Below, piece after piece: positions 12,291 through 17,778 of a stretch of DNA of 64,000 nt; positions within the stretch are counted from its first letter, which is position 1; the number at the start of each line of letters is the position of its first letter. This DNA comes from Naegleria gruberi. Lineage: Eukaryota. Made by a program: the position numbers and the translations under genes. The stretch lies in assembly GCA_000004985.1 (NCBI GenBank), contig GG738890.1, one strand, 5' to 3'. Under the pieces are notes generated by a model. That model was not told the origin of the DNA and made no database searches. It saw only the letters and a program-made list of their open reading frames with translations.

Positions 12291-13937
12291 TCATTCAAGC
12301 CCTTTAGGAAACAATAACTGTTCTAGTGTAATTTTTACGGGAAGATTATCAAGCATGCTTCGATACTTGGATATAAGGGTAGATCTTTTTTCAGGACTAG
12401 TATTGCTTCTAGTTGCCCTAATCATTACATTCTTTGGTGTATGTTCTGTATCAATAAATTCAATAACGTTTGTCTTGTAGCCCATAATTTCCAAAAGTTG
12501 ACATCTCAATGCATCTGTGTAAATGGAACAAAATTTTTCATTGAAAATGTTGTGTTGTAATAGTGGTTCCATAAAGTGATTCTCTGGGAGGGATTTCATA
12601 TGTTTCATTTGTTGGTAGACCTCGTGTTGGCAACATGGAACGGCTAGAATAATTTGACTCTTCCATCTTGTGGCTTGTTCGAGGGCCTTATCTGTTGCTG
12701 TATTGCAGGCATGCAAGGAAACAACAATGTCTACTTGGGAATCATCTTTGTATTCACCAGCAGTGAAATGTGAAGAAGCATCAAATGAATGAATGTCTCC
12801 TACCATAAATTTCAACTCCTTTTCATAGGAATACTTTTTTGAAATGTTATTGCAATGTTGAATGACATCCTTCTTCAAATCCAAACCAATAATTTGTACA
12901 TTTCCAATTTTCAGCACTTCTTTCAAATAGTAGTGAATAGCAAAAGTGAGATATGACTTTCCACATCCAAAATCAACAATTCTCAATGTCATATTTTCTA
13001 CATTTCCCTTCTGGTGTAATAGAGATGATATACTCTCCTTGAAAATCTCCAAAAAGTGATTCATTTGCTTGAACTTGTTATATTTCTGAGCGAGGATCTT
13101 ACCAGAAGTTTCATGTTGTATCCCCAATTCAACAAGGAAATTAATCAACTTGCCCTCTTCCAAAATGTAATCCTTCTTTCTGTTGTGTGAAAACTCATTC
13201 TCCACTGTCGATGATTCTCTAGTGCTTGTTGTTGCCTTAGCCAAATTTGCAATCTTGCTTACTTTCACTTGTTTCATCTTAGTTGTTTCCTTATCATACT
13301 TCACAAGCATGTGAATGTCCTCTGCTGAACCTCTTCTCTGAATCAAAACTTGCTGATAACTTGCATTGTCCATTAATTCTTGAATAATTCGCAATACTTG
13401 TGATAAATCCTCGAAATTTCTATGAATTGCCTTTCCATCCTTCAAAAACAAACTAAATTGAAAACAAGCCTTTGAATCCATCATCATAATCGGCCTCACT
13501 GAAAACTTGAATATTTCAACCTCTCCCAAATTTAATTCCTCTCTAATAGTGGTACCATTATTAATTGATGTTGTCTGTCTTGGTTCACTGAAAGTAGCCT
13601 TGATGAATTCCTTTCTAGAATTAACTTGTTCCGAAATTAAATTAATAAATTCTATTGTACTCGTGCTGATTTGTAATTTTGTATTTTCCATTAATGATGA
13701 TGGTGATGAGGAAGCATTGTGTTGTTGTTGTTGTTTTACATTCTTATCATGATTCGGAGCAAGACCTCGATTAAAATTTAATATGTTCGAAGAATGAAAA
13801 TTCCTTCGTGATTTACATAAAGATGATGAATTCCAAGCCACTTTTCCCATACCCGCCGAGAATGCTGATGATTTTGCCATCTGCTTCGTGTTGGCACCAA
13901 CAACAAACTTTGACTTTAATTTCGAAATCTTTTTCAT
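12291..13937 (-). CDS. Class I SAM-dependent methyltransferase (METTL25/Methyltransf_32-like)
   Basis: Motif I IVDFGCGKSYLTFAI, motif II IGLDLKKDVI, and a downstream LHACNTATDKALEQA...AVPCCQHE block that is typical of that family. Confidence 0.5.
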   Translation of the reverse strand: MKKISKLKSKFVVGANTKQMAKSSAFSAGMGKVAWNSSSLCKSRRNFHSSNILNFNRGLAPNHDKNVKQQQQHNASSSPSSLMENTKLQISTSTIEFINLISEQVNSRKEFIKATFSEPRQTTSINNGTTIREELNLGEVEIFKFSVRPIMMMDSKACFQFSLFLKDGKAIHRNFEDLSQVLRIIQELMDNASYQQVLIQRRGSAEDIHMLVKYDKETTKMKQVKVSKIANLAKATTSTRESSTVENEFSHNRKKDYILEEGKLINFLVELGIQHETSGKILAQKYNKFKQMNHFLEIFKESISSLLHQKGNVENMTLRIVDFGCGKSYLTFAIHYYLKEVLKIGNVQIIGLDLKKDVIQHCNNISKKYSYEKELKFMVGDIHSFDASSHFTAGEYKDDSQVDIVVSLHACNTATDKALEQATRWKSQIILAVPCCQHEVYQQMKHMKSLPENHFMEPLLQHNIFNEKFCSIYTDALRCQLLEIMGYKTNVIEFIDTEHTPKNVMIRATRSNTSPEKRSTLISKYRSMLDNLPVKITLEQLLFPKGLE

Positions 13938-14087: not shown

Positions 14088-15732
14088 TTACTTCAAAATA
14101 GGAATTGCCTTCAAAATTCCAAGTGGACTTGTGTATTGTCTCAACTTGTTACTGTCCTTAATATGTTTCACACCATTCACGACACACTCATTGGCATGAG
14201 CAATGTTATATTCAATGCAGTCCAATAATTCATCTTGGTGTTCAACGAGATTGGCAAAATCTTGGAATAATTGATTGAGTTGAACCATGGAAAAGTATAA
14301 TTGTTTGATATCTTCATTACTTTCCTTTGCAAGTTGATATTCCACATCCAAAGTTGCTTCCTGAGATTGAGTCAAGGCATATTTAGTGTCACCCTTCAAT
14401 AATTCTTGGAATTGCAATTTATCTTCCACAATCATGGTCTCAATCTCTTGAGGAGTTAGGTCAGCATATGGTGATGCTGCATTTTTACCATTTCCTTTAG
14501 CATAAATGTCAAAGAGACGTTTCACACGACCAATCTTGCTTTGTTTGCATTCTTGTTGTACAGATTGGAATTTATCCATTTCTTGCATGAAGAGTTGAAT
14601 GAGTTTTTGCTGTTGTTGAGATCTGAGACGAGTGATGGCATTCTCTTCTTTCATGGCTTCTTTAATTGAGGAAGTTTCGATGGAAATTTCCTTAATGGCC
14701 TCTTGAATTGTAGATGAAAGTTTAGAAGTAACATCAACTTGTTCTCTCATTTTACTGAATTTCCATTTTAAAAATTATTCGAAATTATTTGAAACCTACC
14801 CTGAAAGTTCATCCAAAACTTTAGAATTTGATTCAGTTTGTACCTTATTAGAAAGACTTTCCAATTTGTTAATTTCATTCACCAGATCCACAGTAATCTT
14901 TCTTTCAATTTCATCCTAAATTTCAGATATTTCATTAATTTTCAAATAGTTCCATTTGTTTCATTTAATTTTTCAAAATTCTCAACTAGTACTTACTGCT
15001 TGTTTTTTAAATCTATTCAAATGTTCTTCAATAGTTTCTTCCGTTGGACCACTATTACTATTTGAAGATGCACTTTTAGATTTTTCAGAACTTGAGCTAG
15101 TGGATGACAAACTTCCAGAACTTGACGAAGATTTCATATCAGAAGCACCAAGAGAAACATTCACAAGTATTTTACCATTTCTAACTTGTTCCAAATCCAA
15201 CCAGAATGGTCCCTTTTCGGCAAGTTTCGTAAAATCTGCAATGGTTTTCTCGACCTTTCCCATTGCAACATTCATTAACAGTTTATTCTTGTCAAAAACT
15301 GCAAATTTCAAAGTATCACTTGGTTTGACTCTGTAATAATATTAAATTAATTGCATTATTATTTTATGGATTCGAATAATGATGAAATTATAAACTTACT
15401 GATCGAAAGTAAATTCTTCATTCCATTCCGGATCCAAAGTTTTGTATTGTACTTTAGTCTTTTGTTCATTAGATTTGGAAAATGGCAACTTGATGAGAGA
15501 ATCATTCGGATTGATGGTTCTTTTTAAAAATTATTATTATTCGAAACTTGATGATATTCGAAACTCACATTACTACAAACTAATAGATCATCACAAATTG
15601 TTAAAAATTATAATAATAATTATTTAATATAATTCACATCACACATAAAATACCTACTGGATCACTAGAACCATTCAAATCTTTGCACTGAAGTTGTGAT
15701 CCTTTCACAACCGAAACTTGAAGTTTTGACAT
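14088..15732 (-). CDS. Multi-exon gene: N-terminal C2 domain, Ser-rich linker, then syntaxin-like t-SNARE (Habc + SNARE motif) with no C-terminal TM
   Basis: The SNARE motif is IKQLYFSMVQLNQLFQDFANLVEHQDELLDCIEYNIAHANECV in the ORF 14088..14750. Hb/Hc helices are present, and Ha (DEIERKITVDLVNEINKLESL) lies in an upstream exon (14800..14915). The C2 exons carry SKLQVSVVKGSQLQCKDLNGSSDP...KTKVQYKTLDPEWNEEFTFD (15401..15732). GTAAGT donors are at 14991-14996 and 15395-15400. The exon phases are compatible with one transcript. Confidence 0.55.
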
Positions 15733-15941: not shown

Positions 15942-16634
15942 CTATGAATCAACTTCAATTGTAAAGATATCATGTTCAGAGTTATAACAAAGTGTGTGCA
16001 ACATTAAATCTCCAATTTCATGACCCCAAATTCCATACTTTCCATTGGTAGAACATCTATTAATTAAAGAACAATTTGGATCTTGATCACGCATTGGTTG
16101 AGCAGTGATGGATGAAGAACCATCTTCCTCTTCATATATTTCCTTATATCCCCTACAAATCAAGGCAACCAATTGTCTCTGCGTGAAACCATTCACAGGA
16201 CGTTCAAAAGTCTTCCGAGCAGGAATTGATAATGGATAATCATATTCAATAGTAATAGATTGTCTATTCGGAATCAAATCTGTGGTATCTTCATATCTTT
16301 CCAATTCATCTTCATAACATTGAACGGAAACATAGACGTTTTGTTCTTCCATATCATCAGACTTGACCATGTCGGGCTTGACCATGTCGAGGATGTTTGG
16401 AGAGGCTAAATAGGCTGGTGTTGTTGCTGATGGAGTTTCTTGTTTCTGCTCTGCTTCGGAGAAAATTTGATGTTGAGAAAAGAAGCGTGATTGTTGATAA
16501 ATATTATTCATTACTTTCACTTGTTGGGTCAAACAAGGTTCAATGTGTGTGGCACCGACACCTCTAAAGGCAGATACTTGTTGTTTTTGAGAGGAGAGAG
16601 CGGCACGACGAATGAGAGCAAGACTTTTTTTCAT
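15942..16634 (-). CDS. Hypothetical protein with presequence-like N-terminus
   Basis: 230-aa ORF with an ATG start. The N-terminus is basic and hydroxylated (MKKSLALIRRAALSS). A 15-bp tandem repeat encodes MVKPDMVKSD. I recognised no domain. Confidence 0.4.
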   Translation of the reverse strand: MKKSLALIRRAALSSQKQQVSAFRGVGATHIEPCLTQQVKVMNNIYQQSRFFSQHQIFSEAEQKQETPSATTPAYLASPNILDMVKPDMVKSDDMEEQNVYVSVQCYEDELERYEDTTDLIPNRQSITIEYDYPLSIPARKTFERPVNGFTQRQLVALICRGYKEIYEEEDGSSSITAQPMRDQDPNCSLINRCSTNGKYGIWGHEIGDLMLHTLCYNSEHDIFTIEVDS

Positions 16635-16794: not shown

Positions 16795-17778
16795 ATGATT
16801 AAAAATTCGATCAGACAATTCATAAAAGGTGCATCTTTAAAGGCGCATCATCATCAGCTTTATTTTAATACTTTTCATTATACGAAAGTAAACTATTCTT
16901 CTTACACCCTTCCAGAGATACAAAAATCCATCGAACAAATCAACCAACAAATTTTGAGCACCGAAAAATCCTATCAACTTCATCCGAACATGAAGAATAG
17001 ACTATTCTTTGAATTATCTGAAAATTACTGCGAAAGAGCTTCCTTTCTTTTTTTACTAAAAGATTACAAAAGTGGAACGAACGATCTCACACAAGCAATT
17101 TCATTCAATCCAAGAAATTATAAAGCTTGGCTTTTGAAAGCTCGATATAACTTTGAAAAAGTTGGAGATTTACAAAAAGCTTTGGAAGATTACAACAAGG
17201 TACTTGAATTGCATCCACAACATGTTTTTGCACTCATTGGTCGATGTGATATTTATTTGGAATGGAATGAGTTGGATAAATTGTTGAATGATACTTCTAC
17301 TATTATTGATTTAGTGAAATTGAAAGAAAATCAAAGATTGGAACAAGATGAGAGTGGAGGATTGAAATATGATTCCATTAACATGTTGATCAATTCGTAT
17401 AATAAGAGATTTATTGCATTTCTTAGAAAGGGAGAGTATGAAGTAGCTTTGAATGAATTAAATGAATTAATTAAGGAAATTCCAATGGAGAAAACAGAAA
17501 AATTAATTCAGATGTATTTATTGAAAGGAGTTTTGTATCGTGATCAATTAGCTCAGCCAGATAAGGCACTGGAGGAGTGCAGTAAGATAATTAAGATTGA
17601 TCCGTCTCATGTAGATTCCTTGATTATTAGAGCTTCTCTTTATATGGAAAAGAAAGATTATCAAAGAGCATTGGAAGATTATGAGAAACTACTTGAATTG
17701 GAGCCAACCTCTAAGAATGCCAATTATAGAAACATCATTGAGTCAATCAAAAAGTTGGAAAAAAACAAGTCAAACTAA
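16795..17778 (+). CDS. TPR-repeat protein
   Basis: Repeated 34-residue TPR-like units: AWLLKARYNFEKVGDLQKALEDYNKVLELHP, ALIGRCDIYLE, ALEDYEKLLELEP. Confidence 0.6.
   Translation: MIKNSIRQFIKGASLKAHHHQLYFNTFHYTKVNYSSYTLPEIQKSIEQINQQILSTEKSYQLHPNMKNRLFFELSENYCERASFLFLLKDYKSGTNDLTQAISFNPRNYKAWLLKARYNFEKVGDLQKALEDYNKVLELHPQHVFALIGRCDIYLEWNELDKLLNDTSTIIDLVKLKENQRLEQDESGGLKYDSINMLINSYNKRFIAFLRKGEYEVALNELNELIKEIPMEKTEKLIQMYLLKGVLYRDQLAQPDKALEECSKIIKIDPSHVDSLIIRASLYMEKKDYQRALEDYEKLLELEPTSKNANYRNIIESIKKLEKNKSN

Follow-up and report, generated by a model that had tools for sequence, protein, structure and literature searches.

A predicted Qa-SNARE with an N-terminal C2 domain and no transmembrane anchor in Naegleria gruberi and its relatives

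The 64,000-nucleotide stretch of Naegleria gruberi contig GG738890.1 analyzed here (assembly GCA_000004985.1; referred to below as the window) carries on its minus strand, from 15732 to 14088, a gene whose predicted product consists of a C2 domain, a Ser-rich linker, a syntaxin Habc domain and a complete Qa SNARE motif, in that order, and which ends without a transmembrane (TM) helix. Six exons joined at GT...AG boundaries yield a 1323-nt in-frame coding sequence (CDS) of 440 codons, and BLASTP aligns its translation at 100% identity and 100% coverage with the annotated N. gruberi protein NAEGRDRAFT_80938, which bears the UniRef name 'C2 domain-containing protein.' The exons, in the direction of transcription, and the protein features that they encode are as follows.

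15658..15732, minus strand: exon 1, 75 nt, start codon at 15732-15730, donor GTAGGT; its product MSKLQVSVVKGSQLQCKDLNGSSDP comprises C2 strands 1-2 and Ca2+-binding loop 1 with D18 and D24
15569..15579, minus strand: exon 2, a micro-exon of 11 nt (FVVI), acceptor tattAG, donor GTGAGT
15400..15519, minus strand: exon 3, 120 nt, the middle part of C2 (...KTKVQYKTLDPEWNEEFTFDQ), donor GTAAGT
14997..15330, minus strand: exon 4, 334 nt, opening with the C-terminal half of C2 and continuing through the Ser-rich linker into the beginning of Habc helix A (TEETIEEHLNRFKKQA)
14800..14915, minus strand: exon 5, 116 nt, Habc helix A, donor GTAGGT
14088..14754, minus strand: exon 6, 667 nt including the stop codon TAA at 14090-14088; the remainder of Habc, a linker, the SNARE motif and the C-terminal tail
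15195..15726, minus strand (coding span): C2 domain, residues 3-114, split by introns 1-3; Pfam PF00168
15045..15152, minus strand: Ser-rich low-complexity linker, residues 129-164
14502..15029, minus strand (coding span): syntaxin N-terminal (Habc) domain, residues 170-303, split by introns 4 and 5
14151..14309, minus strand: Qa SNARE motif, layers -7 to +8, I368..S420, with the zero-layer Q392 at 14237-14235
14091..14150, minus strand: C-terminal tail of 20 residues (NKLRQYTSPLGILKAIPILK), at the position usually taken by the TM helix of syntaxins

The five introns are short (45-81 nt), all are of the GT-AG type (donors GTAGGT, GTGAGT, GTAAGT, GTAAGT, and GTAGGT, in order), and their GC content is 0.17-0.22 vs 0.35 for the CDS. 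Retention of any one of them closes the reading frame after a few codons; read-through of intron 5, for example, ends at the TAG at 14799-14797, which a preliminary description of this DNA had put at about 14797. That description set out from the open reading frame (ORF) 14088..14750 (minus strand, 220 amino acids), which is the 3' exon from its first ATG and which indeed ends, at ...HIKDSNKLRQYTSPLGILKAIPILK, without a TM helix. Its start codon at 15730-15732 and its next gene 150 bp downstream, where a same-strand ORF begins at 13937, were both recovered, and the Habc helix A, Ser-rich linker and full C2 domain that it read from upstream exons are present in the spliced CDS of NAEGRDRAFT_80938. 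The junctions that it gave at 14800, 14915, 14997, and 15330 are retained here, while two needed adjustment, exon 6 starting at 14754 instead of 14743 and exon 3 ending at 15400 instead of 15401. Its exon list was incomplete, as two more introns flank the micro-exon (15579..15569) in the N-terminal half of C2, and the GTAAGT donors by which it delimited the exons occur in two of the five introns. It had also placed the organism in the amoebozoa, and the protein identity instead points to Naegleria gruberi, a member of the Heterolobosea (Discoba). We regard it as nearly certain that 15732..14088 is one fused gene, N. gruberi NAEGRDRAFT_80938.

Both halves of the protein are recognized by profile and structure-based comparisons. 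Pfam reports the two families for which a hidden Markov model search had been suggested in the preliminary description, C2 (PF00168) with an E-value of 3e-20 over profile positions 2-103 of 104, and Syntaxin (PF00804) at residues 170-303 with 27.8 bits against a cut-off of 26.7. Among solved structures, the N-terminus matches the C2A domains of synaptotagmin-7 (Syt7) and synaptotagmin-1 (Syt1), with Syt7 as the best C2 match (E 4e-16), and residues 171-422 align with Syntaxin-1A, whose SNARE-motif chains match the N. gruberi protein with E-values of about 1e-6 to 1e-8. When a profile of the syntaxin halves of five family members was compared with the same structures, it matched full-length Syntaxin-1A (E 1.5e-14, over residues 28-249 of the latter) and Sso1 (E 4.5e-6), and the endosomal syntaxins 7, 13, and 17 matched in the SNARE motif only. 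All 16 SNARE layers are intact (ILMLFFV-Q-LIIAVGIS, vs ILILFMV-Q-IIVAVATA in Syntaxin-1A). With an Habc domain and a Q-SNARE motif both present, the predicted protein is a member of the syntaxin/Qa-SNARE family, and the family of C2-syntaxins to which it belongs is, as judged from these scores, a divergent syntaxin.

The matches of the syntaxin-half profile to Syntaxin-1A and Sso1 agree with the UniRef name of the Naegleria fowleri orthologue, 'Syntaxin-PMc,' and with the seven SynPM (plasma-membrane syntaxin) paralogues listed for N. fowleri by Herman et al. (2021 supplement, PMC8296547), most of which carry the remark 'Classified based on phylogeny.' The protein is thus probably a member of the SynPM, or Syntaxin-1/Sso1-like, subfamily. 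We also observed a short segment in front of Habc (residues 165-175, TEETIEEHLNRFK, in the 15045-15029 region) that follows the fast-evolving linker and conforms to TEET[IV][DE]xH[LIV][ND][RK]FK, a pattern that is invariant or nearly so in three Naegleria species; it lies where syntaxins bear the N-peptide that binds SM proteins.

The feature that sets this syntaxin apart is its C-terminus. The peak 19-residue Kyte-Doolittle mean is 0.72 in the N. gruberi protein vs 3.05-3.58 in TM-bearing relatives, and 20 residues follow SNARE layer +8 here vs 43 in a TM-bearing relative, so that the tail is both too polar and too short for a TM helix. The tail core R-x-x-x-[SN]-P-L-G-[IL], followed by mixed hydrophobic and basic residues, is kept in Naegleria, Willaertia and an environmental fragment, and in an alignment the stop codons of the three Naegleria genes, the Willaertia gene and the environmental fragment P0007 coincide. 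In N. gruberi, the 150-bp spacer before the next gene contains no open hydrophobic frame of at least 19 residues, and in the DNA downstream of the N. fowleri and N. lovaniensis genes there is no TM exon, the only hydrophobic stretches being those of the next gene, which encodes a Mem_trans protein. The downstream TM exon that the preliminary description had considered as an alternative is therefore absent from all three Naegleria genomes. A lipidated anchor of the STX11, SNAP-25 or Ykt6 type was considered and ruled out: a check for lipidation motifs found no Cys, no CaaX box and no Cys cluster at the C-terminus (...SPLGILKAIPILK), and, with MSKL at the N-terminus, the Gly2 required for myristoylation is missing as well.

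Several other environmental SynPM-like proteins, which rank among the closest relatives, also end without a TM helix. Three of them (P0034, P0052, and P0047) carry CaaX-like ends (…RKCLIM, …RPKCIIS, and …KKCTLM, respectively), which suggests that they are prenylated syntaxins, and a fourth (P0072, …SSIIRKALPF) is devoid of both a TM helix and a CaaX box. In these protist lineages, the Qa tail anchor may have been lost or replaced repeatedly.

The same layout is found in orthologous proteins. The N. fowleri (437 amino acids) and N. lovaniensis (440 amino acids) proteins align end to end with that of N. gruberi at 57% and 55% identity, respectively (55% and 53% by BLASTP, at 99% coverage), and in their own genome assemblies the two genes share the six-exon structure, the phases, the micro-exon and the 116-nt exon 5, with introns that vary in length and sequence among the three species. 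Similarly, Willaertia magna encodes an orthologue of 459 amino acids (KAL9648861.1; profile positions 3-434, E 5.8e-74, 32% identity). Its gene has only two introns, both within C2, and its last exon runs through 349 uninterrupted codons (residues 111-459), covering C2 strands 7-8, the linker, Habc, the SNARE motif and the stop, so that no splicing decision joins C2 and syntaxin in this species. A fifth protein with this layout, P0150, is a divergent sequence of 448 amino acids from an environmental eukaryote, encoded by a single intron-free ORF on a 1507-bp contig (JGI sample 3300030572, Ga0210258_10217852; L003 3-1349); it scores 98 bits for C2 and 78 bits for Syntaxin, has all SNARE layers intact and no TM helix, ends in ...YYQRHRFKLAPVSAAKLLR, and is 24% identical to the N. 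gruberi protein. The preliminary description, which saw in the locus a single syntaxin-like Qa-SNARE gene whose product has a C2 domain at its N-terminus and no TM helix, is thus borne out by the annotated protein, to which the translation is identical, and by the layout of the orthologues. Fusion orthologues of the kind that it had proposed to look for in other amoebozoa do exist, although in Naegleria species and Willaertia, the host itself not being an amoebozoan.

Willaertia and P0150 were found only by a HMMER profile search over 1.84 billion representative proteins, in which the best 150 of 2663 matches were inspected; further, weaker-scoring C2-syntaxin fusions may be present beyond these 150. 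The profile search also yielded two environmental fragments, P0007 and P0028, that belong with the Naegleria and Willaertia proteins. Word-indexed searches that started from the proteins of N. gruberi, Willaertia and P0150 returned no further fusion proteins, and a metagenome scan based on the family alignment, in which the patterns used were C2-derived peptides, returned seven loci, all with C2 only and without a syntaxin-like region. As to the micro-exon, its counterpart is 16 nt long in N. fowleri and N. lovaniensis (L001 4168-4183; L002 4151-4166), the boundaries between exons 1 and 2 and between exons 2 and 3 being displaced by a few bases, a pattern suggestive of intron sliding or of an alternative boundary choice; in Willaertia, one intron lies near the micro-exon site.

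To place these proteins relative to other syntaxins, we built a crude neighbor-joining tree on BLOSUM score distances between syntaxin halves (200 bootstraps), which included SynPM-like sequences only and hence is no test of subfamily. The C2-syntaxins of Naegleria and Willaertia form a clade in this tree (97% bootstrap), and they are adjoined by a TM-bearing syntaxin of N. lovaniensis (90%). The syntaxin half of P0150 is placed instead among canonical SynPM proteins, together with rat Syntaxin-1A, a syntaxin of Mantamonas and one from MMETSP (86%), and in none of the 200 replicates does it fall together with the heterolobosean C2-syntaxins. This tentatively suggests that the C2-syntaxin layout arose twice, P0150 stemming from a separate fusion. 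An alternative neighbor-joining tree on Kimura distances was discarded as an artefact, as it suffered from saturation, undefined (not-a-number) distances and a ladder that followed the input order.

Substitution patterns indicate that the gene is maintained. Between N. fowleri and N. lovaniensis, the ratio of nonsynonymous to synonymous substitution rates (dN/dS, Nei-Gojobori) is 0.10 in C2, 0.11 in Habc, 0.08 in the SNARE motif and 0.10 in the tail, and it rises to 0.53 in the Ser-rich linker, which is the fast-evolving part of the protein. The gene is not a pseudogene, and its C2 and syntaxin halves are both constrained by purifying selection.

Three readings of the locus would remove the fusion, the missing anchor or the function, and these can be weighed against the observations above. 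The preliminary description had itself allowed for two tightly packed genes read as one, that is, a small C2 protein ending at the TAG in intron 5 and a short syntaxin starting from the ATG at 14750, merged by gene prediction. The ORF 14088..14750 does open with an ATG, read-through of intron 5 does meet a TAG immediately, and N. gruberi is gene-dense, with neighbors 150-210 bp away from this gene. Exon 4, however, is a single open frame (ORF 14982..15311) that by itself links C2, the linker and the start of Habc, and the junctions of exons 4, 5, and 6 fall inside both the residues matched by Pfam Syntaxin (170-303) and those aligned with Syntaxin-1A (171-422). A stand-alone syntaxin would moreover be left without Habc helix A, and M221, its would-be first residue, is not conserved (KMREQV in N. 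gruberi, KQVRDQ in N. fowleri and N. lovaniensis). The three Naegleria species agree in exon lengths and phases, residues 111-459 of the Willaertia protein come from one exon, and P0150 is one intron-free ORF. Exon 4 and the absence of M221 from the orthologues lead us to reject the two-gene alternative, which we consider very improbable.

An ordinary tail-anchored syntaxin whose TM exon has been overlooked, through a truncated annotation, an assembly gap or an unrecognized 3' intron, would fit the presence of a tail anchor in almost all Qa-SNAREs and the 43 residues that the nearest TM-bearing relatives have past layer +8, where this protein has 20. It is extremely improbable given that the stop position is common to N. 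gruberi, N. fowleri, N. lovaniensis, Willaertia and P0007, that none of the three Naegleria species has a hydrophobic frame ahead of the next gene, and that the tail is under purifying selection (dN/dS 0.10). A decaying SynPM duplicate, which lost its TM helix, gained a C2 exon by accident and is now functionless, could account for the weak Pfam Syntaxin scores and for the degenerate Ca2+ site of Naegleria described below; against this stand the dN/dS of about 0.1 in C2, Habc, SNARE motif and tail, the retention of all 16 SNARE layers, the intact frame and splice sites in all species, and the survival of the layout across the divergence of Naegleria and Willaertia (32% identity), and we give this possibility next to no weight.

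What the C2 domain may contribute depends on its ligand-binding loops. We aligned the C2 domains to Syt1 C2A, whose Ca2+ ligands we take to be D172, D178, D230, D232, and D238 (loops 1 and 3). At these five positions N. gruberi has D18, D24, D82, N84, and V90, the last two replacing Syt1 D232 and D238. The pattern is the same in N. fowleri and N. lovaniensis, in which the residue before the last position is Asp (N89 in N. gruberi). The environmental fragment P0028, which covers the three loop-3 positions, likewise has Asn at D232, and the D238 position is Val or Ser in Naegleria and P0028. Willaertia and P0150, on the other hand, retain all five Asp ligands, and the Willaertia C2 domain is 39% identical to Syt7 C2A. 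The ancestral C2 domain therefore looks like one of the canonical Ca2+-dependent type. Asn ligands occur in some Ca2+-binding C2 domains, for example, that of cPLA2. With two of the five Asp residues substituted, the predicted N. gruberi protein should not be called a canonical Ca2+ sensor; its C2 domain may bind lipids independently of Ca2+, bind Ca2+ in an altered manner, or serve as a protein-binding module. Of the Ca2+/lipid-binding C2 domain that had been described at this locus, the domain stands and the Ca2+ part is doubtful for Naegleria. A separate peculiarity of the Naegleria domain is a stretch of 11-13 residues inserted into the loop that follows strand 3 (residues 31-43, INPNDSLIKLPFS; about 15636-15598 plus the start of exon 3), with an invariant INP[NS]DSLIKLP in Naegleria, which lies on the opposite face from the Ca2+ loops and is not found in Syt1, Willaertia or P0150.

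Taken together, we favor with reasonable confidence the reading of this locus as a single gene for a TM-less C2-syntaxin that acts as a recruitable or regulated Qa-SNARE. The protein would be soluble or peripheral, and its C2 domain would bind acidic phospholipids and so target it to the membrane in place of the tail anchor, much as the PX domain does in the yeast SNARE Vam7. Replacement of the anchor by C2-mediated targeting, which the preliminary description had raised as a possibility, is plausible, and we judge it about as probable as not, or slightly more so. Lipid binding would probably be Ca2+-dependent in the ancestor and in Willaertia, and altered or Ca2+-independent in Naegleria. Tethered by a flexible linker of roughly 40 residues, the C2 domain would hold the protein at an acidic-lipid membrane, where it would then fill the Qa position of a four-helix SNARE bundle, with its Qb, Qc, and R partners supplying any TM anchors. 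Being N-terminal, the C2 anchor would lie at the end of the zippered bundle that is far from the membrane; it could localize the protein but not transmit the force of zippering, which makes a recruitable, regulated or modulatory Qa-SNARE likelier than a constitutive fusogen.

Whether such a protein would promote or restrain fusion is a separate matter. As an inhibitory or decoy SNARE comparable to amisyn and tomosyn, it would be recruited by C2, its unanchored Qa helix would fill non-fusogenic complexes, and it would compete with the TM-anchored SynPM paralogues. The position of the anchor at the membrane-distal end of the bundle would suit this role. The mammalian STX11 and STX19, which are lipid-anchored, and the PX-anchored Vam7 nevertheless do support fusion, and the conserved, partly hydrophobic tail (SPLG[IL][LM]K..) could touch the membrane at the correct end. 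In the reconstituted yeast vacuole system, in which Vam7 is an unanchored Qc, it is specifically the TM anchor of the Qa-SNARE that is needed for efficient and rapid fusion (PMC10398888), and with about seven SynPM paralogues in Naegleria (Herman et al. 2021 supplement), a regulatory one would be affordable. Moreover, TM-less SynPM paralogues occur in Leishmania, one of which (SynPM1) is cytosolic, and Venkatesh et al. suggested that the kinetoplastid Syx16A, which lacks a transmembrane domain (TMD), is perhaps regulatory, the SynPM paralogues showing the same loss (PMC5399786). The sequence does not distinguish an inhibitory SNARE from a productive one. We consider a decoy possible yet less likely than not in its own right, and within the favored reading of a recruitable Qa-SNARE we give 'productive with partner anchors' and 'inhibitory decoy' roughly equal weight.

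Several points weigh against this interpretation. C2 domains can act as protein-interaction modules, and all three Naegleria proteins have substitutions at two of the five canonical Ca2+-ligand positions of C2, so that Ca2+-triggered lipid binding may be weak or lost in the product of the N. gruberi gene. The Syntaxin match (PF00804) is barely over the cut-off in N. gruberi and under it in N. fowleri and N. lovaniensis taken alone. The gene models of the three Naegleria species are perhaps not fully independent annotations; the single exon of Willaertia and the ORF of P0150 provide evidence that is independent of annotation. An AlphaFold2 model built on a three-sequence alignment was unusable, with a mean predicted local distance difference test (pLDDT) score of 41 and a predicted template modeling (pTM) score of 0.21, and the proposed mechanism is drawn wholly from domain content.

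A broader interpretation, which we regard as speculative and rather unlikely, is that C2-syntaxins constitute a distinct and recurrently evolved class of SNAREs with at least two origins, one in the vahlkampfiid heteroloboseans and one in the environmental eukaryote of P0150, in which a Ca2+/lipid sensor and a Qa-SNARE share one chain. Ca2+ or acidic lipids would bring the soluble Qa-SNARE to the membrane through C2 and thereby switch on or veto SNARE assembly on demand. If so, C2-syntaxins could act in regulated exocytosis, in the repair of wounds or in the emptying of the contractile vacuole, with an arrangement simpler than the separate synaptotagmin and syntaxin of animals.

The genes that surround the C2-syntaxin gene in the window are unrelated to it or without a Pfam match:

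12291-13937, minus strand: downstream neighbor, a 548-amino acid Methyltransf_32/TRM13-like methyltransferase, apparently intron-less and unrelated
15942-16634, minus strand: upstream neighbor, an ORF of 230 amino acids for which Pfam gave no match at E<=0.001; 210 bp separate its stop from the start codon of the C2-syntaxin
16795-17778, plus strand: a TPR-repeat protein of 327 amino acids, an apparently intron-less and unrelated ORF

The flanking genes differ in N. fowleri and N. lovaniensis, where Abhydrolase_3 lies upstream and Mem_trans downstream, and local synteny is therefore not conserved.

The gene model and its Pfam domains are already in public databases, and full-text literature searches found no paper describing the C2-syntaxin architecture. 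Membrane fusion by SNAREs is generally taken to depend on force that C-terminal anchors pass on to the membrane. Among these anchors, that of the Qa-SNARE is critical when yeast vacuole fusion is reconstituted (PMC10398888), and it is this anchor that the C2-syntaxins have given up, under selection, for an N-terminal C2 domain. They represent a natural experiment on the role of the anchor, and a candidate recruitable or regulatory SNARE in a deep-branching eukaryote. The combination of a synaptotagmin-like module and a syntaxin in a single chain also bears on the evolution of Ca2+- and lipid-dependent control of fusion, and the orthologue in the brain-eating N. fowleri is part of the expanded SynPM set of that species. 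The importance of the gene is tempered by its already being annotated and by a proposed function that is deduced only.

The predicted protein can be compared with several known systems. Like the SynPM syntaxins (Syntaxin-1A/2/3/4, Sso1/2, and plant SYP1), it has an Habc domain and a Qa motif with a zero-layer Gln, as well as the LVE-x-Q-D-E-L-L-D-x-IE-x-N signature; unlike them, it has no C-terminal TM helix, it has gained an N-terminal C2 domain and a Ser-rich linker, and what is a free N-peptide before Habc in those syntaxins has become internal. Its C2 domain is closest to the C2A domains of Syt1 and Syt7, with which Willaertia and P0150 share the five Asp ligands. In contrast to the synaptotagmins, this C2 domain is single instead of tandem and is not attached to an N-terminal TM helix, and relative to Syt1 C2A, the Naegleria domains have Asn and Val at D232 and D238 and the conserved insertion of 11-13 residues (NPNDSLIKLP..F) after strand 3.

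Loss of the TM helix from a Qa-SNARE of the same broad family is seen in STX11 and STX19 and in the kinetoplastid SynPM1 and Syx16A, and a tail anchor is thus typical of the Qa family without being obligatory. STX11 and STX19 attach to membranes through palmitoylated C-terminal cysteines, and the kinetoplastid TMD-less forms have no added domain; to our knowledge, none of these four proteins contains a C2 domain. A TM-less SNARE motif accompanied by a second membrane-targeting domain is also found in amisyn (STXBP6), with an N-terminal PH domain, and in tomosyn, both of which are recruited to membranes, enter SNARE complexes and modulate fusion. Their motif, unlike that of the C2-syntaxins, is of the R type and replaces the vesicle SNARE, they have no Habc domain, and homology does not extend past the coiled coil. 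In yeast Vam7, an N-terminal PX domain that binds phosphatidylinositol 3-phosphate replaces the TM helix for recruitment. Vam7 differs from the C2-syntaxins in being a Qc-SNARE without Habc, in having PX in the place of C2, and in sharing no homology with them beyond the SNARE motif; as a soluble SNARE with an N-terminal lipid-binding domain instead of a tail anchor, it is the closest functional analogy to the protein predicted here.

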